This document shows positions 317 to 50,329 of a DNA stretch of 56,502 nucleotides, piece by piece. Origin of the DNA: Chloroflexota bacterium (GTDB taxonomy: Bacteria > Chloroflexota > UBA4733); contig JBPCLN010000120.1 of NCBI GenBank assembly GCA_051003235.1, positions 1 to 56,502 of the forward strand. Reading direction: 5' to 3'. The translations under genes and the position numbers were made by a program. Numbering within the stretch: position 1 is the stretch's first letter; each line of letters begins with the position of its first letter. The notes beneath the pieces were generated by a model that worked only from the letters and a program-made list of their open reading frames with translations, was not told the DNA's origin and did not search any database.

Positions 317-1363
317 TCACCAATCGCGCTTGCCGACGTAGAGGGCACGGTTGGCCAGCGGCAGCGCCACGCGGGCGCCCTGCTGACCGTGGGACGCGAT
401 GACGCCCATGATCAGTTCCTGACTGCGGCGGGCGAGTTGCACGTTGCCCTGGGTATCGCCGCCGTTATCCAATGCCTCCACGAGGTTTGTCATGCAGTTC
501 AAGGCGCTGCTGGTCCGTTCGAATTCCGGTGGTTGCACTACCTCAAGCTGCTTTTCAGCCCCGCCTTGGCGGCGAAGTTCGACGGATTGTCCATCATTGT
601 GCAGCCGCAGTTTGCCGGTCGTGCCGGTTACCTCCCACTCGTAACCAAGCGTGGCGAGCAGGTAGCCATGGATGCCGCCGGCGAAGCGAACATAGGCCGA
701 ATCGATCGAGGGGTCGACCTCGACCTGATTGTCGCCATAGTCGGCTTCGTCCGCCCCCACCGTTCCCTGGACGTACTCCACGTTGCGGTCGCCGGCCAGC
801 ATGAGAAGCAGGTCGGAAGCGTGGGTATGGCTCCAGAGGGCGGAGCCGGCGCAGGAGCCGATGACGGTCCGCTGCTCCCCGACGATGCCCTCGGCGATCA
901 GTCGGCGGGCCTCGCGGTAGACCGAGCTGTAGCGGCGGTTGACGCCAAGGTTGAACTTGACGCCGTGTTGCTCACAGGCGGCAACCATGGCGTCGGCTTC
1001 CGCCATCGAACAGCAGAGGGGCTTCTCACACCAGATCGCTTTGACGCCGCGCTCGGCGGCGTAGACGACGATCTCCCGGTGGCTGGCCGGCCGGGTGGTG
1101 ACGCTGATCACATCGGGATGCTCGCGGTCGATCAGTTCCCGGAAGTCAGTGTAGGGGCGGGGAATATTCCACCGCTGGCAGAAGGCGTGCAATTTGTCTT
1201 CCAGCACATCGGAGGCAGCGACCAGCGTCGTGCGCGCGCAGGCCTGGTAGGTGCCGGCGTGGCTGTAGGGGAAGATGATCGACGCGCTATTGCGCACTTC
1301 ATCGTCGATCGAGCCGCCCATGCGTCCGCAGCCAATAATCGCCGCGGTATAGGTGCGTGCCAT
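317..1363 (-). CDS. Gfo/Idh/MocA-family NAD(P)-dependent oxidoreductase
   Basis: 348-aa ORF. N-terminal IIGCGRMG dinucleotide-binding motif and a CEKP motif are typical of the family. Confidence 0.85.
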   Translation of the reverse strand: MARTYTAAIIGCGRMGGSIDDEVRNSASIIFPYSHAGTYQACARTTLVAASDVLEDKLHAFCQRWNIPRPYTDFRELIDREHPDVISVTTRPASHREIVVYAAERGVKAIWCEKPLCCSMAEADAMVAACEQHGVKFNLGVNRRYSSVYREARRLIAEGIVGEQRTVIGSCAGSALWSHTHASDLLLMLAGDRNVEYVQGTVGADEADYGDNQVEVDPSIDSAYVRFAGGIHGYLLATLGYEWEVTGTTGKLRLHNDGQSVELRRQGGAEKQLEVVQPPEFERTSSALNCMTNLVEALDNGGDTQGNVQLARRSQELIMGVIASHGQQGARVALPLANRALYVGKRDW

Positions 1364-2309: not shown

Positions 2310-3425
2310 TTACTCCGAGCGACCACGGGCGGTCACGAGCCAGACGGCTTCGACCACACCTTTCCGGGCAGCGAATACCCGATCATGAAGGTTGGCGGCG
2401 GAGCAGCAGTGGCCCGGGTAGACTGCCAGCACATCACCGATCCGCAAATCGGTGGCATAGCCGTCGCGGACGATAAAGTTGCCATGCTCCTCGGAGAGCG
2501 AACGGTACGCGAGTTCGGGATGGCCCGCCACTGCCGGCGTGCCGTGGTCCCGCGCCAGGACCTGGATGCCACCGTCGGTGATGACCTTCTCCGAGGATGG
2601 CCGGCTCAGCACGGTGCAAAGCACACTGAAGGCCAGGTCAAATTCCGGCACTTTCTCCTGGTAGCTGGGGTCCATATAGACGTAAGAACCGGACTGGTGC
2701 TCTGTCACGCCGGGATAGACGCCGGAAATGTTGTAGGTACCGGTACCGCCGCCGGTCACCACGGCCACCGCCAGGCCGTTGTGCTCCAGGAGGTCACGGG
2801 TCTCGATCGTCCGGGCAAACATGCGCTCCGTTTCCGCCTTGCGCACCGCGACGTCTTGGTGCTGGACGACGTGGCCCTCATACGCATGCAGCCCGCGGAA
2901 GCGCAGCCCGGGCGACCGGCTGACCGCCCTTGCCAGGTCCAGGGCCGGCTGGCCCGGTTGGACACCGCAGCGACCCATCCCGGCGTCGACCTCGACCACC
3001 ACATCAAGCGTCACGCCGTGGGCCTGAGCGGCGTCGGCGAGATCGGCGACATTGCCGGCGTCATCGACGGCAACCGTCACACGGGCGCGCTGCGCCAACC
3101 GGCAGAGCCGGTCGATAGCCTGACGGGAAACGACCTGATTGGCGACGAACACGTCATCAATGCCGCCCTCCGCCATCGCTTCGGCCATGGCTACCTTGGC
3201 GCATGTGACGCCCGTCGCGCCGGCAGCCAGTTGCATCCGCGCGATCACCGGGGCGCGGTGGGTCTTCACATGTGGGCGCAGGCGGGCTGGGCGGTCCTGA
3301 AAGAATCTGGCCATTCGGGTGATGTTGCTCTGGAGCACGTCAACATCGACGACCGGCGCCGGCGTGGGGAGGTCGGCAACCGGCCGTCCGATCGCCGGAT
3401 GATCGGTCAGAACGTCAGCAAACAT
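2310..3425 (-). CDS. DSD1-family PLP-dependent enzyme (D-serine dehydratase / D-threonine aldolase-like, alanine-racemase N-terminal fold)
   Basis: 371-aa ORF. Has TPAPVVDVDVL.. followed by the RPHVKTHRAP lysine motif characteristic of this family. Confidence 0.8.
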   Translation of the reverse strand: MFADVLTDHPAIGRPVADLPTPAPVVDVDVLQSNITRMARFFQDRPARLRPHVKTHRAPVIARMQLAAGATGVTCAKVAMAEAMAEGGIDDVFVANQVVSRQAIDRLCRLAQRARVTVAVDDAGNVADLADAAQAHGVTLDVVVEVDAGMGRCGVQPGQPALDLARAVSRSPGLRFRGLHAYEGHVVQHQDVAVRKAETERMFARTIETRDLLEHNGLAVAVVTGGGTGTYNISGVYPGVTEHQSGSYVYMDPSYQEKVPEFDLAFSVLCTVLSRPSSEKVITDGGIQVLARDHGTPAVAGHPELAYRSLSEEHGNFIVRDGYATDLRIGDVLAVYPGHCCSAANLHDRVFAARKGVVEAVWLVTARGRSE

Positions 3426-3462
3426 GGGTTATGCTTCCAAATCCAATACGGTGTAGTTGTTG

Positions 3463-3495
3463 AACCGGGCCGTGGCTGCGGTCGGCGGCCCGGTT
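3463..3495 (-). terminator. 10-bp perfect GC-rich hairpin immediately after the solute-binding-protein gene (intercistronic stabiliser or partial terminator)
   Basis: AACCGGGCCG (3463-3472) and CGGCCCGGTT (3486-3495) are perfect reverse complements around a 13-nt loop. There is no U-tract. Confidence 0.4.
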
Positions 3496-3506
3496 ACCGG
3501 CTCTTA

Positions 3507-5042
3507 TTATTGCAGCTTCAGATCCTGATCGAGCAACACCTGCGCCGCTTGCTGGGCCTGCGTCAGGCCATCCTGAACGCTGTACTTGCCGCCAAAGATA
3601 TCGTTGATCGTGGTGTTGAGCGCCCCCGAGATCTTGGCGTAGGAGGGTAGGGCCGGCCAGCGCCAGCCGTGGGGGGCCATGTCAACGAACCCCTTGAGCT
3701 GGGGATCCGTCATGAGGTAGTCCTGGAGTTCCGTCGATTGGAAGGCGGCGTTGCTCACCGGCAGGGACGTGGCCTGGATGCACATCTGAGCCTGGGCGTG
3801 CGAGGCGTTGAGCCACATGGCGACGCGAGCAGCCGCTTGTCTGTGATCGGCCGGGATTCCCTGGAAGACGGAGACGTTGTGCCCGCCGTTCCCGGCGAAA
3901 ATGGTCTTCTTGATCGGCGTCGGGAGGACCGTGAAGTCGGTAACACCGTTATGCCGCAAGGTCGGGATGCGATACGGCCCCTGGCTCTCGAAGACCACAC
4001 CGGTGCCCTTGGTCTTATTGAACAGCTCGCCTTCCATCTTGGTTGGCGTGACGCCGATCTTGAACAGGTTCGCCAGGTACGTGATGGTATCTTGCGCTTC
4101 CGGGGTGGTCATGGTGATCTTCTGGGCGTCCGAACTGATCGGAAACCCCCCAGCCGAGCCGAGCCAGTTGCTCCAGTAGACCCAGTTCCAGTCGTAGCCC
4201 CAGCGGTCCGGCGGTTTGTTCCCCTTCTGGACGAGATCCTGGAAGTCCTGCCAATTCCAGTCGGACTTCGGTGCGGGGACGCCAACCTGGGCGAGGAGTT
4301 GCGGACTGTAGATGATGGCGGAGTTGTTCGTGTAGCAGGGCATGCCGGCGAGCTTGCCGGCCCAGCTGCTGCTGGAGAGCATGTCAGGGAAGATGTCGGC
4401 CTTCTGGGCCGCCCAGCCCTTTTCCGGGCGGAGTTGGGCGTCCAGGTCGATCACCGCCCCTTTGGCGAGGAGCGCCGCCGCGTCATAGTAGGCGACGTAG
4501 ATCAGGTCGGGCGGCGTGCCGGCGGCGGCCAGTGTAAAAGCCTTGTCGAGGGTGGTGGCGTTCTTGGCCGCCGAAACGTCGACGGTGACGCCATCGGTGT
4601 TGGTCTTCGTATATTCGGCTAGCAAGCCGAGCCGCGCTTTGCCTTCCGGATGTGTATCCGGCAGATCGGACATATAGGTGACGGTGATTCCGCCTACCTT
4701 GCCCACCGCGCTCGTGGCCGTTGCCTGGACGGCGGACGCCGAAGAGGTTGCCGCGGCTGATGTCGCGCTGGTGCTGGTGGGCGTGACAGCGGACGCTGTT
4801 TTCCCTGCCGATGTGCTTGCTGTCGCGCTAGTACTGGTCGGCGCGACAGCGGATGCTGTCGTAGCCGGAGCCGTTGCCGGCGCCGTACTTATTGTCGATA
4901 GCGCGGCGGTTGCGGTCGTGCTTGCTGCCCCTTGGCCACTGCCGCACGCAGCAAGCAAGGAGGCGGCAGCCAGGCCGCCAGGCAGGGCAACCAGGAAACG
5001 CCGCCGCGTTACGCCCGTCGGTAGACCTGAAAGTTGAGGCAT
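3507..5042 (-). CDS. ABC transporter extracellular solute-binding lipoprotein (carbohydrate type) with Ala/Thr/Ser-rich linker
   Basis: The ORF track gives 3507..5126. I prefer ATG 5042 (MPQLSGLPTGVTRRRFLV...LLAACGS), which gives a twin-arginine signal plus lipobox, preceded by AAGGAG 7 nt upstream. The C-terminal ~400 aa look like a family-1 sugar SBP. Confidence 0.85.
   Translation of the reverse strand: MPQLSGLPTGVTRRRFLVALPGGLAAASLLAACGSGQGAASTTATAALSTISTAPATAPATTASAVAPTSTSATASTSAGKTASAVTPTSTSATSAAATSSASAVQATATSAVGKVGGITVTYMSDLPDTHPEGKARLGLLAEYTKTNTDGVTVDVSAAKNATTLDKAFTLAAAGTPPDLIYVAYYDAAALLAKGAVIDLDAQLRPEKGWAAQKADIFPDMLSSSSWAGKLAGMPCYTNNSAIIYSPQLLAQVGVPAPKSDWNWQDFQDLVQKGNKPPDRWGYDWNWVYWSNWLGSAGGFPISSDAQKITMTTPEAQDTITYLANLFKIGVTPTKMEGELFNKTKGTGVVFESQGPYRIPTLRHNGVTDFTVLPTPIKKTIFAGNGGHNVSVFQGIPADHRQAAARVAMWLNASHAQAQMCIQATSLPVSNAAFQSTELQDYLMTDPQLKGFVDMAPHGWRWPALPSYAKISGALNTTINDIFGGKYSVQDGLTQAQQAAQVLLDQDLKLQ
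4761..4859. repeat. Imperfect direct repeat (two ~39-nt copies, 60-nt period) inside the SBP linker
   Basis: 4761-4799 and 4821-4859 match at about 34/39 positions. They encode TASAV(A/T)PTSTSAT(A/S) twice at a 20-aa period. Confidence 0.8.
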
Positions 5043-5094
5043 CGCATTCTCCTTCGCAATCGCAGAAACAACACCACAGCAAACGCGGCGGCCG

Positions 5095-5796
5095 CTATGA
5101 CCCTGCGAGCAGCCGTCCGCCAACACGTTCTACGTGGGCGGCGGCTGCTCGTTCGGCGCGCTGCGGGTCGCCAGCCGCGAGCGCTTGAATTACTTGGTGG
5201 TGACGCTCCATAAAGTCATTGATCGCCTCAGGGCTCGGTGACGATGGTGGCGTCGCCGCGATGAGCTTCCAGGCAGCCGGCGTGAGCAACCGCCAGGAAC
5301 GCAGGAGTAACTCGTGCCGGGCGCTGCGCACGAGCAGGTCGTGGAACTCGGCGTTCTTCTCCTCCATCGTCAGCCAGTCGCCACGGCGTGCCCCGTCGGC
5401 GCCGGCTTCCACTACCGATCGCAACTGCTCCAACTCGGCGGGCGTGATCCGCAAACACGCCCGCCGCGCGGCAAACCCTTCCAGGACGGCCCGTAGACTG
5501 ACCACCTCATCAATGTGCGCCGCTGAATGCTGCGGCACAAACACGCCGCGCCGGACGGCGTGCGCCAGGATGCCATCGCGCAGCAGGCGCGCCATCGCTT
5601 CTCGTACCGGCGTCCGGCTGATACCGAGCCGCCGGGCAATCTCCGCCTCACTGATCCGATCACCCGGCTGCACCTCGCCGCTGCGAATCAGTTCCAGGAC
5701 ATAGGCCTCAACATCCAAGTGCAGCGCCCGGTTCTCGGTCAAATTTGGAACAGGAACGGCCATCGTCTCCCCGTCGCCGTCGGAGTATATCTCCAT
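5095..5796 (-). CDS. GntR-family transcriptional regulator (FadR/FCD subfamily)
   Basis: 233-aa ORF. N-terminal winged HTH (..GDRISEAEIARRLGISRTPVREAMARLLRDGIL..) plus an all-helical C-terminal FCD-like domain. An alternative start is ATG 5763 (MAVPVPNL). Confidence 0.85.
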   Translation of the reverse strand: MEIYSDGDGETMAVPVPNLTENRALHLDVEAYVLELIRSGEVQPGDRISEAEIARRLGISRTPVREAMARLLRDGILAHAVRRGVFVPQHSAAHIDEVVSLRAVLEGFAARRACLRITPAELEQLRSVVEAGADGARRGDWLTMEEKNAEFHDLLVRSARHELLLRSWRLLTPAAWKLIAATPPSSPSPEAINDFMERHHQVIQALAAGDPQRAERAAAAHVERVGGRLLAGS

Positions 5797-5800
5797 GTGG

Positions 5801-5812
5801 ACTGTCTACAGT
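5801..5812. promoter_or_regulatory. Candidate GntR operator palindrome ACTGTCTACAGT in the divergent intergenic region
   Basis: Perfect 5-2-5 palindrome containing the TGT-n2-ACA core expected for GntR/FadR-type operators. Related copies are ACTGTAG at 5823-5829 and GTAGACAG at 5876-5883. Confidence 0.4.
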
Positions 5813-5922
5813 TCTACATGCTACTGTAGGCTATCAGCCGCTCCCTGTCAAGGGCGAGGGAGAAAATGTAGGGCCGTAGACAGCGGTCGCGGCCCTACTG
5901 CGTCAGGGAAGGTGGAAAAGCA

Positions 5923-6978
5923 ATGGCAGCACCAAAAGTCTACCGAGCGGGGATCATCGGTCTGGCGCGCATGGGGAGCTGGTGGGACGACAAGTTGCAG
6001 GAGACGACGCCGCTGGAAGTGCCGTCTAGCCATGCCGGCATGTACACCGCCTGCCCGCGTACCGAACTGGTCGCCGGCTGCGACCTTGACGCTGAGAAGC
6101 GGGGGACTTTTTCCCGGCGCTGGGGCGTCGGGGCGGTCTACGCCGACTACCGGGAAATGCTGGCGCAGGAGTCGCTGGATGTGGTCAGCGTGGTCACCTC
6201 CTGGGCGAGCGTCCAAGGCGACATCGCTACGCACGTCGCCGCCAGTGGCGTGAAGGGCATGTACTGCGAGAAGCCGATGGCCACCTCGATCGAGCAGATG
6301 AGCCGGATTGTCGATCTCTGCCGCGATCATCAGGTGGCCGTGGTCGTACCCTACATCCGTCGCTACAATCCGCGCTACGCCACAGTCCGGGAACTTGTGA
6401 CTTCCGGCGAAATTGGCCAGTTGCGCGCCATCCACGCCACTGCCGTTGCTGCCTTGCTGCATGCCGGCACCCACTATTTCGACCTGATGAACTACCTCAG
6501 CGGCGATCCGGAGCCAGCCTGGGGCGTCGGTCGCCTGGAAGACACCTCTCATATCAAAGCGGACAACTGGTCCCGTCAGGACCCGTCGGGCAGCGGTTAC
6601 TTCGAGTTCCGTAACGGGTTACGCTACACCTTCGACGGCGCAGCCGGTGGGCCGGCTTCCTTCCTGCTGTCCGGCACGGCCGGGCGAATCTGGGTGCTCA
6701 ACGAGGCGACGGACATCCTGCTGTGGCGAACCAGGGCTACGGCGGACAGGGTCGTGGTGGAAACCATTGCCCCGGCCGAGCAGACCCAAAGCCTGATGTA
6801 CTCCGGCCTGGAGGATCTCGTCCATGCCATGGATACGGGCGAACCCACCCGCTGCAATGCGCAACAGGCGGCGCGGACACTGGAAATGGCCCTTGCCATC
6901 CACGAGTCTCAGCAGCACGGTAATAGCCGAGTGGACTTCCCGCTTCAGAATCGGAGCCTGAGCGTGGATACCTGGTAG
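5923..6978 (+). CDS. Gfo/Idh/MocA-family oxidoreductase (paralog of 317..1363)
   Basis: 351-aa ORF. IIGLARMG.. and ..CEKPMA motifs. It aligns by eye along its length with the 317..1363 product. Confidence 0.85.
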   Translation: MAAPKVYRAGIIGLARMGSWWDDKLQETTPLEVPSSHAGMYTACPRTELVAGCDLDAEKRGTFSRRWGVGAVYADYREMLAQESLDVVSVVTSWASVQGDIATHVAASGVKGMYCEKPMATSIEQMSRIVDLCRDHQVAVVVPYIRRYNPRYATVRELVTSGEIGQLRAIHATAVAALLHAGTHYFDLMNYLSGDPEPAWGVGRLEDTSHIKADNWSRQDPSGSGYFEFRNGLRYTFDGAAGGPASFLLSGTAGRIWVLNEATDILLWRTRATADRVVVETIAPAEQTQSLMYSGLEDLVHAMDTGEPTRCNAQQAARTLEMALAIHESQQHGNSRVDFPLQNRSLSVDTW

Positions 6979-43644: not shown

Positions 43645-44187
43645 TTAATTATCGCCCCAGCCGGCCATCGCCTGGATCAGCACCGGCTCGGGATTGACAT
43701 TACCGTCACTTTCCACCGTCATCAAAAAGCTCAACGGTGGGCGATTAAAGGAGGCGTCCGCCACCGTCACGCCATTATGCTGCTCGAGTAGCGACGCATA
43801 GACCTGGCCGCCCCCGCCGTGCCGGGTCACACTGCCGACCGACTGCGGTAGGCCGATCAGGTTCATGAATCGCCCCCCCTCCAACGGCACCGCTTGCACC
43901 GTGAGCGTCAGTTGCTGCCCTTGCACCAGCATGTGATATTCATCGAACAGGACAGGTTCGCCGCAGTCGGGCATCGGAACGGGCTGGACGCGCCAAACGC
44001 GCGGCAAACGGACGGTATAGGGGATGCAGGCCGACCTGAAGGTGCTACCCCCTGGCGCCAGGCGGTGTACCGTGACGATCGAGACCGCAAGGAGCATGGC
44101 CAGGAGGCCCAGCAGCGCACCGCGTCCGCTCCGGGCGGCCCGCCCCGCGCGCCAGGAGAGGATGCGAACCTGGAGTTGGCGCTCCAT
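43645..44187 (-). CDS. hypothetical single-pass membrane-anchored protein
   Basis: 180-aa ORF. Arg-rich N-terminus, one TM segment (..ALLGLLAMLLAVSIVTV..), and an unrecognised C-terminal domain. Starts 29 nt downstream of serS on the same strand. Confidence 0.5.
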   Translation of the reverse strand: MERQLQVRILSWRAGRAARSGRGALLGLLAMLLAVSIVTVHRLAPGGSTFRSACIPYTVRLPRVWRVQPVPMPDCGEPVLFDEYHMLVQGQQLTLTVQAVPLEGGRFMNLIGLPQSVGSVTRHGGGGQVYASLLEQHNGVTVADASFNRPPLSFLMTVESDGNVNPEPVLIQAMAGWGDN

Positions 44188-44216: not shown

Positions 44217-45482
44217 CTATGCCTGCCGGATGACGTCCGTCCCCATATACTGACGCAACACCGGCGGCACCACCACGCTACCATCTTCTTGCTGGTAGTT
44301 CTCCAAGATGGCAGCGAACGCCCGATCAATGGGCAGCCCGGAGCCATTCAAGGTGTGGACAAACTCCGGTCGCTCACCCGCCGCTCTCCGAAACCGAATA
44401 TTCGCCCGCCGCGCCTGAAACGCCTCACAGTTGCTGATCGACGAGATCTCCCGGAACTCCGCCAGGCCGGGCAACCAGACTTCCAGGTCAATCTGGGCGG
44501 CGGCCGTAAAACCGAGATCGGCGGTGCAAATGCGAATGCCCCGATATGGCAGTCCCAACGCTTGTAACAGGTCTTCAGCATCGGCAACCAGGCGATCGTA
44601 CTGCTGATAGGACTCTTCCGGCCGGCAAAAGGTGTACAGCTCCACTTTATGAAACTGATGAAGGCGGATCGTGCCGCGCGTATCGCGACCGGCCGACCCG
44701 GCCTCGCGCCGCCAGGATGGGCAGTAGGCGGTGTAGCGCAACGGCAACTGCTCCGCGGCGAGGATATCGTCGCGGTGGAGGTCGGTCAACGCCACTTCCG
44801 CCGTCGGGTTCAGCCAGAGGTCGTCTTCGCGCAGGAAGTAGGCATCGTCCGCGAACTTCGGCAGCTTGGCGGAGCCGAGCATCGCAGCGCTGCGCACCAG
44901 GTAAGGCAACGCCACCTCGGTGTAGCCATGCTGGGCGACGTGGGTATCGAGGAAGAAGGCCATCAAGGCGCGCTGGAGGCGGGCGCCCAGTCCCCGAGTG
45001 ACATAAAAGCGAGCTCCCGCCAGCTTGACCCCGGCCTCCGGGTCATAGATGCCGAGCTGCTCGCCAACCTCCCAATGCGGGCGCGGGGCGAACGCAAAAT
45101 GCGGGTGCTCGCCCCAACGCAGGTACTCCACGTTGTCCTGGTCGGTTGCTCCCACCGGCACGTCGGCGTGTGGCAGGTTGGGCAAGCTAAGGGCTAAATC
45201 GTTCAGCGCCCGATCAATCGTCTCCTGCTCACCGTCCAAGGCCTTAATCCGGTCAGATAGGGCGCGCAGTTCCAGGCGTTGCTCCGCATTGGGCCGCCCG
45301 GCACGCTTGATCGCTTCATTGGCGGCGTTGCGCCGTTCCCGCAGGGCCTGCGCCTCGCCCAGCACGGCCCGCCGCTGCGCGTCCAGGAGCACGAGTTTGT
45401 CCAACGATTCCGAGGCGTGCCGCAAACTGAGGCGCTGGCGCACCTCCTCGACGTGCTCGCGGATATAGGCGACCGGCAACAC
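44217..45482 (-). CDS. serS: serine--tRNA ligase
   Basis: 421-aa ORF with an N-terminal coiled-coil arm and class II motifs (..FRREAGSAGRDTRG.., ..GSGLPIDR..). The GTG start overlaps the lysS TAG by 1 nt. Confidence 0.95.
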   Translation of the reverse strand: MLPVAYIREHVEEVRQRLSLRHASESLDKLVLLDAQRRAVLGEAQALRERRNAANEAIKRAGRPNAEQRLELRALSDRIKALDGEQETIDRALNDLALSLPNLPHADVPVGATDQDNVEYLRWGEHPHFAFAPRPHWEVGEQLGIYDPEAGVKLAGARFYVTRGLGARLQRALMAFFLDTHVAQHGYTEVALPYLVRSAAMLGSAKLPKFADDAYFLREDDLWLNPTAEVALTDLHRDDILAAEQLPLRYTAYCPSWRREAGSAGRDTRGTIRLHQFHKVELYTFCRPEESYQQYDRLVADAEDLLQALGLPYRGIRICTADLGFTAAAQIDLEVWLPGLAEFREISSISNCEAFQARRANIRFRRAAGERPEFVHTLNGSGLPIDRAFAAILENYQQEDGSVVVPPVLRQYMGTDVIRQA

Positions 45483-46963
45483 TACTCGGTACCTCCTGCT
45501 GCTTCGGTACGGCGATGGTGGGGGAACAGAATGACCTCGCGGATGGAGTGATTGTCGGTGAGCAGCATCGTGAGGCGGTCCACACCCAGGCCAATGCCTC
45601 CCGTGGGTGGCATGCCGTGCTGCAAGGCCAGCAGGTAGTCCTCGTCCAGTTGGTGAGCGTCCACATCTCCCTGCGCCGCCGCCCGTTGCTGGTCGAGGAA
45701 ACGCTCCCGCTGATCGTCCGGATCGTTCAACTCGCTGAAGGCATTGCCCAATTCAAAGCCGGCCACCAACGGTTCAAAGCGCTCCACCAGCATCGAATCG
45801 TCACGGTGACGCTTCGCCAGGGGTGATAGTTCCCAGGGATAGTCCATCAAGAAGGTCGGCTGGATCAAGTTCGGTTCAACGTAATTCTTGACCAACTCGT
45901 CAACCATCCTGGCCCAACTCTCGCCGCCACCGCAGCGTAGCCGGCGTTCTCGGCAGGCGGCGAGCAGCGCGGCGGCGGCGCGGTACAGGCTAAAGTCCAG
46001 TCCGGTCGCCTCCAGGATGGCCTGCCGCATGGTCAGCCGTCGCCAGGGCGGCGTGAAGTCTAGCTGCTGTCCCTGGTAGGCAAGGACGTTGCTCCCGCCA
46101 ATTTCCTGCACCACCATGACGACCAACGCTTCAAAGAGGTCCATCATGTCGTAGTAGTCGGCGTAGGCTTGATACGCCTCCAACATCGTGAATTCCGGGT
46201 TGTGCTTGTAGGAAATGCTCTCGTTCCGAAAATCGTGGCCGATCTCGTAGACCCGATCGAAGCCGCCGACAATCAACCGCTTGAGATAGAGCTCGTCGGA
46301 AATGCGCAGGTACAGTTTCTGCGCCAGCTCGTTGTGATAGGTGTCAAATGGCTGCGCCGTCCCGCCGCCGTAGAGCGGCTGCAGAACGGGCGTTTCCACT
46401 TCCAGAAAACCGCGACTATCCAGGCAGCGCCGTAGAGTACTGACGATCCGGCTGCGCGTCCGAAAAATCTGTCGGCTGCCCTCGTTCGCCATGAGGTCCA
46501 GATAGCGATGACGTTGGCGGAGTTCGACGTCCTTCAGACCATGGAACTTCTCCGGCGGTGGTTGCAGGGCCTTCGCCAGCAGCGTCAACGTTTGTACGCC
46601 CACCGACGGCTCGCCGGGGCGGGAGCGCAAGGTCTCTCCTGCCGCGCCGACAATGTCGCCGGCATGGAGGTCGCGCAGCAACGCCCAACCGGCATCGCCC
46701 AGCGTCTCTCGCCGGAGGAGCAACTGCACGCGGCCGCTGTCATCGCTGAGGTGGACGAAGGCGATCCGACCCATGTCGCGCAACACGCCCATGCGGCCGG
46801 CAACCGTGACGCCGGTCGGCGTATCGGCCAGGGCGGCCGCTTCGGTGCAGGTATGGGTGCGTGCGAACGTGGCAGGAAACGGGGCAACCCCCCGGCTTCG
46901 TAGCCGATCCAGGGCGACTCGCCGCTGGACGCTTTCGTCGCTCTCGCTAGCTTGCTCGGTCAT
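45482..46963 (-). CDS. lysS: lysine--tRNA ligase (class II)
   Basis: 493-aa ORF with an OB anticodon-binding domain and class II core (..FRNESISYKHNPEFTMLEAYQAYADY.., ..GGIGLGVDRLTMLL..). Confidence 0.95.
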   Translation of the reverse strand: MTEQASESDESVQRRVALDRLRSRGVAPFPATFARTHTCTEAAALADTPTGVTVAGRMGVLRDMGRIAFVHLSDDSGRVQLLLRRETLGDAGWALLRDLHAGDIVGAAGETLRSRPGEPSVGVQTLTLLAKALQPPPEKFHGLKDVELRQRHRYLDLMANEGSRQIFRTRSRIVSTLRRCLDSRGFLEVETPVLQPLYGGGTAQPFDTYHNELAQKLYLRISDELYLKRLIVGGFDRVYEIGHDFRNESISYKHNPEFTMLEAYQAYADYYDMMDLFEALVVMVVQEIGGSNVLAYQGQQLDFTPPWRRLTMRQAILEATGLDFSLYRAAAALLAACRERRLRCGGGESWARMVDELVKNYVEPNLIQPTFLMDYPWELSPLAKRHRDDSMLVERFEPLVAGFELGNAFSELNDPDDQRERFLDQQRAAAQGDVDAHQLDEDYLLALQHGMPPTGGIGLGVDRLTMLLTDNHSIREVILFPHHRRTEAAGGTE

Positions 46964-46976
46964 GGACGGTGTACCC

Positions 46977-47750
46977 TTAATTCATCAGGCGCACCACGGC
47001 GCCACTGCCGGCCTCCACTCGAATGGTACCGCCAGTCTCCGTTTTGACGATAAGCGCCCCGGAACCATCGACCGCTGTCGCCCGCCCGCTGACGACGTGG
47101 CCGTCCCGTTCGACGGCCACGGATTGCCCCACCGTGTCCAATAGCAACCGCCAGGCCTCTTTGATGTGATCCAGCCGCCCGCGCAGCAGCCGTCCCAGCA
47201 AGTGGTCAAGTTCGCGCAGCACGCGCCCAGCGACGTCGTTGCGCTTAGCCGGATGGAGCGACCAGGCATCCAGCGCCGTCACTCCCGATTCGGCAACCGC
47301 CGCTGCGGCGTGCACGTTGATGCCGATGCCGACGATGGCCAACGGTGAACCGGCGGGAATCTCCGTAAGCACCCCACCGACTTTCATGCCACCGAGCAGC
47401 ACGTCGTTCGGCCATTTGATACGCGGCGGCACACTGGTGAAGCCGCGCAGCGCCTGAACTGCGGCGATTGCCGCCGTTGGCGTCAACCAGGAGATCGCCT
47501 CCGGCTTGGCCGGTACGGGAACGAGCACGGAAAGGTGGAGGCCGGCGCCGGGCGGTGACAGCCAGCTGCGCCCCTGCGTTCCCCGTCCGGCCGTTTGGTA
47601 GCCGGCAATGGCGGCCGTCCCTGCCAGGGCGCCACGATTGATGAGATCGCGAGCAACGTCCTGCGTCGAGGTCGTTTCCGGCAGGTACAGCACAGCCGCG
47701 CCACACACGGCGCCGGCGTCGGCTACCAGGATCTCAGGGGCATCTTGCAT
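46977..47750 (-). CDS. birA: biotin--[acetyl-CoA-carboxylase] ligase, group I (no N-terminal HTH)
   Basis: ..TTSTQDVARDL...YQTAGRGTQGRSWLSP.. (GRGRxGRxW-type motif). ATG 47750 is chosen because the track start 47804 lies inside a terminator hairpin. Confidence 0.8.
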   Translation of the reverse strand: MQDAPEILVADAGAVCGAAVLYLPETTSTQDVARDLINRGALAGTAAIAGYQTAGRGTQGRSWLSPPGAGLHLSVLVPVPAKPEAISWLTPTAAIAAVQALRGFTSVPPRIKWPNDVLLGGMKVGGVLTEIPAGSPLAIVGIGINVHAAAAVAESGVTALDAWSLHPAKRNDVAGRVLRELDHLLGRLLRGRLDHIKEAWRLLLDTVGQSVAVERDGHVVSGRATAVDGSGALIVKTETGGTIRVEAGSGAVVRLMN

Positions 47751-47766
47751 CGTAGCTATCCAGGTC

Positions 47767-47812
47767 AAAACAAACAAAGGCGGGGAGCGGAGGTTGCCCC
47801 CCACTCCCCGCC
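47767..47812 (-). terminator. Strong intrinsic terminator 16 nt upstream of the birA start
   Basis: Reverse strand: GGCGGGGAGUGGGGG-GCAA-CCUCCGCUCCCCGCC (15 bp including 2 G-U pairs, GNRA tetraloop; 47779-47812) followed by UUUGUUUGUUUU (47767-47778). Confidence 0.75.
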
Positions 47813-47834
47813 AGGTAGCTGCCGGGCAGCGACC

Positions 47835-47906
47835 CTAGACTGCGGTAACCCCATTGGAGCCCCGCATAGAAGCACTGCCGCTGCCCAAGCAACTTGCACT
47901 ACCCAC
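47835..47906 (-). CDS. Candidate 23-codon leader mini-ORF (MGSASCLGSGSASMRGSNGVTAV)
   Basis: GTG at 47906 lies 9 nt after GGAGG (47916-47920, within AAAGGAGGTG). The ORF has 6 Ser and 5 Gly codons and a TAG stop 22 nt before the terminator stem. It is too short for any coding statistics. Confidence 0.25.
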   Translation of the reverse strand: MGSASCLGSGSASMRGSNGVTAV

Positions 47907-47934
47907 TACACACCACCTCCTTTCTTACACGATG

Positions 47935-47963
47935 AGCGTACCATAATTGCCAGGGGTTGACAA
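47935..47963 (-). promoter_or_regulatory. Candidate promoter TTGTCA-17 nt-TACGCT for the leader transcript
   Basis: The reverse strand has TTGTCA (47963..47958), a 17-nt spacer and TACGCT (47940..47935). It lies 21 nt after the PBP stop codon. Confidence 0.35.
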
Positions 47964-47983
47964 TGGCGATGGGAGTTACGGCA

Positions 47984-50329
47984 TTAAGTGGGCCGGTAGG
48001 TTTCGTTGCCGACGGTGGAGACAACGCGCGGCCACGCGGCTGGGCAGAGGTACTCCGTCGTCGTGCAGGTCTGGTGGTCGCCAGGTGGGACATGCGGCTG
48101 CCAGGGAGTCTTGAAGTAGGCCTCGTAGACGGCGCGGCAGATCGGCGCAGCAACATCGGCCCCTTCGCCGGCATGCTCGGCCATCGCCACCACGGCGATC
48201 TCCGGTTTGTCGGCCGGTGCGAAGCTGGCGAACCAGGCATGTGGCTGGGCTTGACCGCTCTGGGCGGTGCCGGTTTTGCCGGCGATGGGAATAGGAAAAT
48301 CGCGGAAGGCCCAGGAGCCGGTGCCGAGCCAGCCTGTAGTTTCGTCGACGACGCGCCGCATGGCAGCCCGCACCGTCGCCAGTTCGTTGACACCCACGGG
48401 CAGGGTACTCAGCTTTTTCACCGGCGCCGGCGTCTGCTCTCCACCGGTCGGCGCCAGCACCTTATCAACGACACGCGGCGTCCAGAGTGTGCCGCCGTTA
48501 GCGATGGCGGCGATCCAATTCACCATTTGCAAGGGAGTGACCAGCAAGGCGCCTTGACCAATCGCCAGGTTCACCGGGTCGCCAGGATACCAGGGTTCGT
48601 TCTGGGTCTGTTGCTTCCAGGTTGGACTGGGCAGGATGCCTGCCGCCTCCTGCAGGCCGACGATGCCGGTGGTTTGCCCAACGCCAAAACCCTTGGCGAG
48701 GTCGGGGAAGACGTTGTGTCCCCTCCCGTCCAGCGTATGGCCGACTTCGTAGAACACCACATCGCAGGATTGGGCCAGGGCCTCCGTCAGGCTAATGTTG
48801 CCGTGGCCACCGATTTTCCAGCAGTGCAATGCAATACCCAGCCCGTTCCAGACGCCGGTACACGTGAACATGGAAGCGGGGCCAAACATCGAACTGCCCA
48901 GACCGGACGACATGGTGACCGTCTTGAACGTGGAACCGGCAGGGTAGGCGCCCAGCGTCGGTCGGTTGGTCAGCGGCTGAGCGGCGTTTTGGAAGAGCGC
49001 CTGGGCCTGTTGTTGGGACAGCCCCAGGATGAATTCGTTCGGGTCGAAACTCGGATTGCTGGCGAGCGCCAACAGCGAGCCGTCGCTCACGCGCATGACC
49101 GCGACGCTGCCGTTGTATTTGCCCAGTGCGTCTTGCGCTACCTTCTGCAAAACCATATCCAACGTCAGGACAATGTTGCTGCCCCGCACGGGCGCACGCT
49201 CGGCAATCACCGTGAACACCGTGGCGTCGGGCGTCACCACCGCCAGCTTGCCCCCACGCTTCCCAGCAAGCGTCGCCTCACCCCAGCGTTCCAGGCCTGA
49301 CCGGCCGATCCAATCGCCGGTCAAGTACCCTTCTTGCCATTTCGTCTTCAACTCGTCGGCATTAATTTCGCCCAGATAGCCGACGGACTGGGCCGCCAAT
49401 TCCTTCTGCGGATATCCCCGCAAGGGAACGTCAGTGAAGGCAATACCAGGCGTGTCCTTCAGTGCCGCCTGGACAGCGGCAAGCTGCGCCGGCAGCACGA
49501 TTTGCACCGGCTGGAGCCAGGTTGGATGAGTCTTCGCTTTATCGTAGAGCGCCTGCAGTTGGGGCAATGGATGGCTCAGGGCTTTGCTCACCGCTGCCAG
49601 GGTGGCAGGGACGTCCTGGATCTTGCCCGGCACCAGGCCCAGGTTGGTATAGGTCGTCTGCGTCGCGACCTTCGCGCCCGTGCGATCGACGATCTCACCG
49701 CGCGGCAGGCTTTGTGGTGTCATGGATATCAGGTTCGGGCCTGCCAGCTCTTTGAAGATCAGTGACGGCAGCCATTGCACCAGCCAGCGGTCGCCCTCCT
49801 GGATCAGGGCGATGGTGTTGTCCTGATCGACCGTTCCCACCAGGGCCGTCTGCATCGTGACGTGAAAGCGTTGGGTTGGACTCTGCGCGTCCTCCGCTGG
49901 CAGCACTTGCGCCTTCAGGGTAATGATGCTGGCGACGTCCCAGATCTCGGCATAACGCGTAACAAATTTGTCCTTGGCGATCGTCGCCTGGGCCTCTTGA
50001 CTGAGCAGGGTATACATCGTCGGGTAATCCTGCGCCTCCCAGCCGGCGAGAAAGGCCTTGGCTGCCCCTTGCGGTGTATTCGTTGGCGTTGGTGTCGGGG
50101 TGGGCGGCACGGGGGTCGCGGTCGGGGGGATTGCCGATGGCGTAGCGGGCGCAGTCGGGGCGGCAATCGAACCGGAGGCGCGGCTTTCCGCCGCCAACGT
50201 GCTGGCGCCGGCGCAGGCCGCGAGCGACAGCGCGGCGCCACTGCCAACCGCGAGAATACCAAGCAACTGCCGCCGTCCCAGCCGTCGGGGTGATTGAGCC
50301 GGAGTTCGGGGAGGGGGCAATAGGGTCAC
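47984..50329 (-). CDS. penicillin-binding protein (class B transpeptidase) with NTF2-like (MecA_N-type) N-terminal domain
   Basis: 781-aa ORF. Signal/anchor ..LGILAVGSGAALSLAACAG.., a Pro/Thr linker, an NTF2-like segment (..AAKAFLAGWEAQDYPTMY..), and transpeptidase motifs STFK (..AGSTFKTVT..) and KTGTA. Confidence 0.85.
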   Translation of the reverse strand: MTLLPPPRTPAQSPRRLGRRQLLGILAVGSGAALSLAACAGASTLAAESRASGSIAAPTAPATPSAIPPTATPVPPTPTPTPTNTPQGAAKAFLAGWEAQDYPTMYTLLSQEAQATIAKDKFVTRYAEIWDVASIITLKAQVLPAEDAQSPTQRFHVTMQTALVGTVDQDNTIALIQEGDRWLVQWLPSLIFKELAGPNLISMTPQSLPRGEIVDRTGAKVATQTTYTNLGLVPGKIQDVPATLAAVSKALSHPLPQLQALYDKAKTHPTWLQPVQIVLPAQLAAVQAALKDTPGIAFTDVPLRGYPQKELAAQSVGYLGEINADELKTKWQEGYLTGDWIGRSGLERWGEATLAGKRGGKLAVVTPDATVFTVIAERAPVRGSNIVLTLDMVLQKVAQDALGKYNGSVAVMRVSDGSLLALASNPSFDPNEFILGLSQQQAQALFQNAAQPLTNRPTLGAYPAGSTFKTVTMSSGLGSSMFGPASMFTCTGVWNGLGIALHCWKIGGHGNISLTEALAQSCDVVFYEVGHTLDGRGHNVFPDLAKGFGVGQTTGIVGLQEAAGILPSPTWKQQTQNEPWYPGDPVNLAIGQGALLVTPLQMVNWIAAIANGGTLWTPRVVDKVLAPTGGEQTPAPVKKLSTLPVGVNELATVRAAMRRVVDETTGWLGTGSWAFRDFPIPIAGKTGTAQSGQAQPHAWFASFAPADKPEIAVVAMAEHAGEGADVAAPICRAVYEAYFKTPWQPHVPPGDHQTCTTTEYLCPAAWPRVVSTVGNETYRPT

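Follow-up and report, generated by a model that had tools for sequence, protein, structure and literature searches.

The trpL, hisL and pheM-pheST leaders of Enterobacteria are ribosome-mediated transcription attenuators, the pheST operon of Escherichia coli being an aminoacyl-tRNA synthetase (aaRS) operon under leader-peptide control. TnaC and SpeFL are metabolite-sensing arrest peptides that act at the stop codon, and STAB-SD, named for the Shine–Dalgarno (SD) motif, is a 5' mRNA stabiliser of cryIIIA from Bacillus thuringiensis. Biotin protein ligases of group I lack the DNA-binding domain that makes the E. coli BirA a regulator; to our knowledge, nothing has been reported on how these group-I enzymes are controlled, and we know of no biotin riboswitch described so far. 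The present analysis concerns a leader found immediately ahead of a birA gene in a 56.5-kb stretch of DNA (the window; positions 1–56502 of contig JBPCLN010000120.1), which its BirA homologues place among uncultured Chloroflexota. This leader belongs to a previously undescribed family of elements dedicated to birA in several Chloroflexota lineages. Leader-peptide attenuators have been described in general terms (PMC1183508, PMC2965389), and the literature on birA leaders, serS leader peptides and Chloroflexi attenuators yielded no prior description of the element.

The gap of 233 bp between a gene for a penicillin-binding protein (PBP) and birA carries, on the minus strand, all the elements that a first inspection of the letters alone (the sequence-only reading) had listed there, and none of them is a chance feature. 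The leader promoter (47935..47963) consists of the -35 box TTGTCA at 47963–47958, a 17-nt spacer and the extended -10 box TG-G-TACGCT, with the TG at 47943–47942 and the hexamer at 47940–47935, and places the predicted transcription start at about 47926–47929. It was missed by a generic promoter scan because TACGCT fits TATAAT at just 3 of 6 positions. The first SD motif, SD1 (AGAAAGGAGGUG, also given as AGAAAGGAGGTG; 47914..47925), lies some 5–10 nt from the predicted 5' end of the RNA and is complementary to the 3' tail of 16S rRNA over 12 nt, or 14 nt with GU pairs, the duplex with the anti-SD amounting to -15.3 kcal/mol. SD1 is the sole perfect AAGGAGGTG within the 56.5 kb; as a rough proxy for ordinary SDs, GGAG, GAGG or AGGA occurs up to 20 nt from the first in-frame start codon in 10 of the 31 long open reading frames (ORFs) of the window. 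The small upstream ORF (uORF; 47835..47906) has a GTG start, 23 sense codons and a UAG stop, and would encode the peptide MGSASCLGSGSASMRGSNGVTAV. The sequence-only reading had set the GTG 9 nt beyond the SD, a spacing that holds when counted from the GGAGG core; it is 7 nt from the end of AAAGGAGGTG.

The long-range helix of the same reading, here called P1, exists too, but comprises about 17 bp rather than 12. Its 5' arm (region 1; 47877..47894, AGUUGC-UU-GGGCAGCGGC) is made of uORF codons 5–10, and its 3' arm (region 2; 47817..47833, GUCGCUGCCC-G-GCAGCU) begins 1–2 nt past the UAG, so that 47894–47877 pair with 47833–47817 at -32 kcal/mol, compared with -22.7 ± 3.3 kcal/mol for shuffled sequences. 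At the apex of P1 a local hairpin (47842..47865, GCGGGGCUCC-AAU-GGGGUUACCGC) pairs an anti-SD-like CUCC with a second SD motif, SD2 (AUGGGGUU, 47854–47847), which is degenerate in the window copy and ends 9 nt before the stop. An anti-SD-like segment, CUACCU (47813..47818), has AGGUGG of SD1 as its predicted partner once the RNA is complete. The intrinsic terminator (regions 3 and 4; 47767..47812) has two parts: a 15-bp stem with a GCAA loop at 47812–47779, calculated at -34.5 kcal/mol, is followed by the U-tract UUUGUUUGUUUU at 47778–47767, and 16 nt separate this tract from the ATG of birA. The fold of 47740–47935 as a whole gave z = -3.85 against shuffles.

Loci containing birA were taken from reference genomes and from contigs encoding close BirA relatives, and distant copies of the leader were found with a covariance model of clade A, the clade of the window, together with a simple SD pattern. 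The family comprises 19 distinct copies, all directly upstream of birA and co-oriented with it, from several Chloroflexota lineages that diverged deeply; loci are cited by their L numbers where they have to be told apart. Clade A holds nine distinct copies, with BirA identity falling from 97% to 49%, and in the distant copies L070, L061, L009, L022, L011 and L052 BirA is just 30–40% identical. The element was present in all four randomly chosen further relatives of the L009 BirA and in 7 of about 45 Chloroflexota reference loci, and one more copy was found in a metagenome-assembled genome (MAG) labelled Acidobacteriota. Scanning metagenome contigs for an exact pattern, a 20-nt 5' block, returned one contig, identical to a locus already in the set, and 26 degenerate-pattern matches on viral contigs proved to be ordinary strong SDs with start codons of unrelated genes.

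The genes around the leader change from lineage to lineage. Upstream of it, the PBP gene is found in some members of clade A and a solute-binding-protein gene or a signal recognition particle (SRP) RNA gene in others, while the distant lineages have genes for SmpB, an APH-family kinase, a Mur ligase or an aminotransferase, or ABC-transporter genes on the opposite strand. This persistence beside other upstream genes, together with a conserved promoter of its own, rules out the refutation that had been envisaged for the sequence-only reading, namely that the terminator merely ends the PBP transcript. Downstream, birA is not followed by lysS-serS in the six distant reference-genome copies, where the next gene is mostly convergent, and no aaRS gene was found after birA in four clade-B loci sampled later.

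Comparison with relatives had been proposed as a check, and both the mini-ORF and the helices recur throughout the 19 copies, with covariation in P1, the SD2 hairpin and the terminator. As to the promoter, the -35 box, the TG and the -10 box are conserved in clade A over a variable spacer, and a T(G/A)TGnTAnnnT box stands ahead of all copies whose upstream sequence was read, putting the start of the RNA a few nucleotides before SD1. SD1 itself is invariant in the 19 members except for one A-to-G change in L061, and its duplex energies are about -15 to -16 kcal/mol over the family. A GTG, TTG or ATG start follows GGAGGUG after 6–8 nt in every member. The starts switch among these three codons; the uORF nevertheless keeps a length of 20–25 codons in all 19. 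For each independent lineage a uORF of such a length has a probability of about 0.11 by chance, and uORF sequences are unrelated in at least five lineages; conservation of the length is not due to chance. In clade A all indels within the uORF are multiples of three, those of 1 nt being confined to the parts before the start and after the stop, and codon 4 varies synonymously among GCA, GCG and GCT; the 5' block from AGAAAGGAGGTG to GTGGGTAGT is almost invariant in this clade. The encoded peptides differ completely between clades (one of them is the His-rich MDHHIGHRPVRSCHHLNEVLV), save for the E/G-V encoded by SD2. The stop codon is UAG in 18 of the 19 uORFs, a preference that may reflect either the specificity of release factor 1 (RF1) or only RNA pairing (UAGG/CCUA). 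The exception, L022, has UAA; an in-frame UAG occurs there five codons further on, exactly at the 3' arm of P1. A second ORF past the uORF stop of L009 is missing from L052 and was treated as chance.

The RNA structure is maintained along with these signals. P1 is found in every member, with z values from -2 to -5.5, and always links codons from about 5 to 12 of the uORF to the sequence after the stop, its own sequences being unrelated between clades. In the nine clade-A sequences 95.9% of the cells pair, and seven pairs have changed on both sides, a number reached by none of 500 shuffles. The apical hairpin (helix 6) and, within clade A, the terminator likewise show compensatory changes. SD2, which reads GGAGGUG or GGGGGUG, occupies the apex of P1 two to three codons ahead of the stop in all 19 members and scores -9.6 to -15.9 kcal/mol in 18 of them. 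Its local partner is always an anti-SD-like CUCC or CACCUC, with covariation between GGAGGU:AUCUCC and GGGGGU:GCCCCC. Masking of SD1 by CUACCU (helix 1) pairs in 82% of clade-A cells, without covariation, and has an analogue in clade B, where AAGGAG pairs with a CUCCUU that adjoins SD2; CCUCC-like parts of the terminator could pair with SD1 or SD2 in some clades only, and this pairing was discarded. A GC-rich hairpin followed by at least four U residues is present in 15 of the 19 members. The uORF stop lies 22 nt from the terminator in the window and 20–24 nt from it in clade A, and L070 and L061 both have 23 nt; clade B, with 34–56 nt, and L022, with 37 nt, have longer distances. No clean family-wide covariance model was obtained: the model-guided alignment took in terminator hits on the reverse strand, and in the MAFFT alignment the 3' halves of clade B were out of register. 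Taken as a whole, the element is a genuine structured leader, very probably translated, with a promoter and a terminator of its own.

No known RNA family accounts for it. The Rfam 15 scan returned zero matches at the gathering threshold in the entire 56.5-kb window (1–56502), in which no tRNA or transfer-messenger RNA genes were detected either. T-box RF00230 was found neither at the gathering score nor at E <= 10 in 47600–48100, nor at E <= 0.1 in seven related loci; the sequence-only reading, too, had recognised no T-box or other riboswitch class in the leader. The best matches of cmscan below threshold were CC2171 (20.6 bits against a gathering score of 75) and Chloroflexi-1 (19.9 against 80). 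CC2171, a Caulobacter small RNA, begins like the leader with GAAAGGAGGUGAU and ends in a terminator; the likeness of both families is limited to an SD and a GC-rich terminator, and the leader is therefore not a member of either. The seven related loci gave only unrelated matches elsewhere in the loci: SRP RNA immediately upstream of the element in L091 (978–1245, minus strand), RNase P RNA about 2 kb upstream in L022 (1639–1999, plus strand) and L070 (1607–1966, plus strand), and a c-di-GMP-I riboswitch in L009 (754–844, plus strand).

Among described systems, the leader comes close to trpL, hisL and pheM-pheST. It shares with them a short leader ORF, a 1:2 helix whose 3' arm begins just past the stop, a terminator directly before the genes, a possible 2:3 antiterminator and, in the window clade, a downstream aaRS with enrichment of the cognate Ser. 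The stop codon abuts region 2, a trpL-like geometry. In contrast to those systems, the leader has no tandem regulatory codons, the composition of its uORF is not conserved family-wide, its constant target birA is not an amino-acid pathway gene, and the antiterminator is a candidate only; conversely, the classical attenuators have neither a perfect SD of 12–14 nt at the 5' end nor a masked SD two to three codons before the stop. With pyrBI, pyrE and ampC of E. coli the leader shares an ORF end close to the terminator stem (20–24 nt in clade A; PMC4824070), and here, too, the outcome would hinge on how closely the first ribosome trails the polymerase. However, the pyrBI ORF crosses its terminator and pausing sensitive to nucleoside triphosphates sets the coupling, whereas no such pause signals were identified in the leader, and the pyrBI-type distance is not kept in clade B (34–56 nt). 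TnaC and SpeFL resemble it in having leader peptides of about 20–35 residues and in that an event at the stop is proposed (UAG and RF1, as in SpeFL). They are, however, conserved peptides that control Rho-dependent termination, whereas the peptide of the leader is unconserved between clades, its terminator is intrinsic, and it is RNA, by way of SD2 and the anti-SD, that is proposed to hold the ribosome.

The account that we put forward, tentatively and as somewhat short of probable, is that the leader, of about 160 nt, is translated co-transcriptionally and acts in cis as a ribosome-dependent transcription attenuator before birA. We infer uORF translation, read-through, the role of SD2 and the nature of the signal from the arrangement of the parts. 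Transcription would begin a few nucleotides upstream of SD1, and a ribosome could thus load once the RNA emerges and translate the 23-codon uORF. As codons 5–10 form the 5' arm of P1, P1 would have to melt, and the passing ribosome would expose the masked SD2 two to three codons before the stop. Without a ribosome, P1 and the 15-bp terminator would form and the transcript would end 16 nt ahead of birA; with a pioneer ribosome well placed as RNA polymerase meets the terminator, read-through would ensue. Two routes to this outcome can be envisaged. In the first, a ribosome stalled over region 1 would free region 2 for the 5' arm of the terminator. In the second, which would need no antiterminator, a ribosome at the stop codon, 22 nt from the terminator stem, would hinder folding of the hairpin. 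In E. coli, an intrinsic terminator works less well when a ribosome sits at a stop codon fewer than about 27–30 nt away (PMC4824070), and the clade-A stops, at 20–24 nt, fall inside this interference range. Situated at the SD-to-P-site distance from the stop, SD2 would plausibly hold the terminating ribosome there. Afterwards the RNA would refold and SD1 would be masked. As to the signal, general translation status or transcription-translation coupling is favoured over a single amino acid.

For the first route, the sequence-only reading had been unable to draw a convincing antiterminator. A trp-like pairing of regions 2 and 3, which it missed, is plausible: the candidate (47801..47832, minus strand; UCGCU.CCCG.CAG....CUG.CGGG.AGUGG) is predicted at -19.8 kcal/mol, compared with -14.8 ± 2.6 kcal/mol for shuffles (z about -1.9), pairs in 90.5% of clade-A cells, and is mutually exclusive with P1 and with the terminator. 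The 6-bp GCGGGG:CCCCGC alternative offered by the earlier reading is at chance level, the best partner of the terminator 3' arm reaching -16.3 kcal/mol against -17.9 ± 2.1 kcal/mol for shuffles.

Attenuation further presupposes that birA is transcribed from the leader. The sequence-only reading had argued that there is no room for a promoter between the U-tract and birA. In the window neither an SD nor a TANNNT box nor any promoter-like box was found ahead of the birA start, and the TANNNT box is absent from eight of the nine clade-A copies; the exception, L084, has a chance TATCCT. An SD before birA is usually absent in this clade, L122 being the one copy that has it. As no birA promoter is visible in clade A, read-through is the best inference there for birA-lysS-serS. 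The argument does not extend to the whole family, however, since five clade-B members have a box 8–9 nt before birA.

Several observations weigh against attenuation as a general account of the family. The conserved box of the five clade-B members (L009, L126, L052, L011 and L125) reads TRTGn(C/G)ATnAT, and birA is probably under its own near-leaderless promoter in them (predicted as TGTGGCATGAT in a clade-B representative); the leader of this subclade may be a separate transcription unit. In L011 the leader and birA have been driven about 300 nt apart by repeats, and the -10 box before birA is kept all the same. L001 and L085, whose BirA is as close to that of the window as is the BirA of L002, have no element in 5–8 kb of contig, and ilvD ends about 55 nt upstream of birA in both. 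The window SD2, at -5.9 kcal/mol, is the weakest of the family. The 2:3 antiterminator lacks covariation, lies about 2 standard deviations beyond shuffles and is weak or absent in L119 and L003, and clades B and C gave no consistent alternative pairing. A mimicry between the uORF and the terminator arms (region 1 with 3, region 2 with 4) was not significant in an ungapped match test and was marginal in L070. Why biotin ligase should be coupled to translation status is, moreover, not obvious in physiological terms, and all members come from uncultured MAGs or metagenomes. The repeats of L011, at 3637–3778 between the leader terminator and birA, consist of 2.5 tandem copies of a 56-bp unit with 93% matches, and the insert also holds terminator-like GGGGTCACC-TTTT fragments.

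A serious rival to attenuation, possible if on the unlikely side, is that the element forms a small transcription unit by itself, a tiny and strongly translated mRNA or a ribosome-binding RNA, with birA expressed mainly from a promoter of its own; adjacency to birA would then reflect insulation of a weak promoter, promoter occlusion or low-level piggy-back read-through. Every member is indeed a complete promoter-to-terminator unit, and both SD motifs are masked in the folded RNA. The extended -10 box before birA in the five clade-B members, retained by L011 in spite of its repeats, speaks for the same view: its placement fits leaderless genes, whose mark is a TANNNT box some 12 bp ahead of the start (PMC3160421). 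So does the lineage of L001 and L085, which, as we argue, expresses the operon without the element. However, the lack of peptide conservation between clades makes a trans-acting peptide unlikely, and there is no conserved single-stranded seed for a trans-acting small RNA. Strict adjacency to birA on the same strand, kept while every other neighbour has been replaced, speaks for an effect in cis. No birA promoter is seen, furthermore, in clade A or in the subclade of L123 and L127, and L123, L127, L003 and L061 have poor U-tracts.

Within attenuation, the sequence-only reading had considered the sensing of serine directed at serS. Scarce charged tRNA-Ser would cause a stall that covers region 1 and allows 2:3 pairing, and the resulting read-through would raise SerRS, BirA and LysRS. 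The codon counts agree with what had been noted: six of the 23 uORF codons are Ser, against 5.6% in the genes of the window, and four of the six are AGT or TCT, two codons that account for 10% and 3.5% of the Ser codons in the 31 long ORFs used as baseline. Ser codons 5, 7 and 9 fall within region 1, the trp-like 1:2 / 2:3 / 3:4 layout is present, and the pheST operon offers a precedent for an aaRS operon so controlled. Across the family, the main clade-A copies, whose operons include serS, have 5–8 Ser codons of 23–24, and those of other clades 1–4. It is this distribution that weakens the serS-directed logic, because the element tracks birA, including in distant copies with no lysS-serS behind it, and Ser enrichment is confined to the serS-bearing clade; the ancestral tie of the element is to birA, not serS. 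Even in the presence of serS, L003 has only three Ser codons. Several of the Ser codons are forced by the RNA (AGU-UGC and AGC in the P1 arm, UCC in the anti-SD mimic), and no switching from AGY to UCN was seen as a sign of selection for Ser. serS comes third in the operon, there is no enrichment of Lys codons despite lysS being the second gene, and the antiterminator is statistically insecure. A Ser-specific leader-peptide attenuator is thus weakly supported and conceivable for clade A only, and we consider it unlikely. Of the reading first proposed, a structured and translated attenuator finds partial support; its Ser rationale is weak.

A more specific version of ribosome sensing starts from the two SD motifs. 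The combination of an SD at the 5' end with a masked SD at a fixed distance before the stop is unusual, and it might define a new class of ribosome-sensing leader, a "twin-SD" attenuator, in which the 5' super-SD loads a single pioneer ribosome and the unmasked SD2 tethers it at the UAG. The dwell time of the ribosome would then decide whether the adjacent terminator forms, and could itself be set by RF1 and recycling, by polymerase coupling or, conceivably, by a biotin-related ligand on the ribosome-nascent chain complex. We regard this version as quite unlikely. If true, it would give a biotin protein ligase gene its first described cis-regulatory RNA and possibly reveal a new principle, in which a ribosome is held at a stop codon by its own anti-SD.

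Far less in its favour has the view that the element is a 5' mRNA stabiliser or translation enhancer, with the super-SD and uORF holding a ribosome that blocks a 5' exonuclease or feeds the SD-less birA start, and with purely structural hairpins. SD1 is near the predicted 5' end and greatly exceeds the ordinary SDs of the window in strength, and birA lacks an SD in most members. The likeness to STAB-SD of the cryIIIA mRNA lies in a perfect SD of the GAAAGGAGG type close to the transcript 5' end and far from the start of the main gene. No start codon follows STAB-SD, however, whereas SD1 is followed by an optimally spaced start, a conserved ORF and a terminator before the gene. Stabilisation leaves the conserved terminator, P1, SD2 and the fixed uORF length unexplained, and with about 85 nt and a 15-bp hairpin between the uORF stop and the birA start, the distance is too great for re-initiation; this explanation is very unlikely. 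Least credible of all, although a structured leader does precede a cofactor-ligase and aaRS operon, are a ligand- or tRNA-binding riboswitch (a T-box or a new biotin-related aptamer), for which the Rfam scans above gave no match and the clades share no conserved unpaired nucleotides beyond the two SD motifs that could form an aptamer-like core, and a mere PBP terminator with a chance ORF, which the promoter, the copies lacking a PBP gene upstream and the conserved uORF length contradict.

The conserved features that could face a ligand are thus all ribosome-binding, being neither an aptamer core nor a peptide. Should ribosome-dependent attenuation, the favoured account, be correct, it would provide a route of control for a group-I biotin ligase and add a deeply conserved, unannotated leader to Chloroflexota, in which gene regulation has hardly been studied by experiment. 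Pipelines for MAG annotation miss a 23-codon ORF with its terminator, and the structure of the birA-lysS-serS operon is misread as a result.

The operon downstream of the leader in the window (44217..47750, minus strand) keeps its gene order throughout clade A. It begins with birA (47750–46977), whose product has the Pfam domains BPL_LplA_LipB and BPL_C and no helix-turn-helix domain, and continues with lysS (46963..45482) in second and serS (45482..44217) in third place. The PBP ORF upstream, also on the minus strand, has its 3' end at 47984 and encodes the Pfam domains Transpeptidase, PBP_dimer and MecA_N. The uORF and birA share a reading frame in the window, the sole intervening stop being the UAG at 47837–47835, and the mechanically called birA ORF reaches back to a GTG at 47804, within the terminator. 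A fusion of uORF and birA by stop-codon read-through was considered and rejected, as the two are in the same frame in the window and L084 but out of frame in L002; the shared frame is probably a coincidence. Directly 3' of serS lies an ORF of 180 aa (43645–44187, minus strand) with no Pfam match, whose position is kept in L081. In the clade-A relative L119 the gene caller gives a single product of 887 aa with LysRS and SerRS domains (3342–6005); this points either to fused lysS and serS genes or, at the ATGA overlap (at 45482 in the window), to a frameshift or an error of assembly. Finally, L085 has a small, very basic ORF, MSKKRSKLRQRKKKPANHGKRPVAGR, upstream of ilvD (about 1005–1085, minus strand), which resembles the tiny actinobacterial ribosomal protein bL37, with its ANHGKRP motif.

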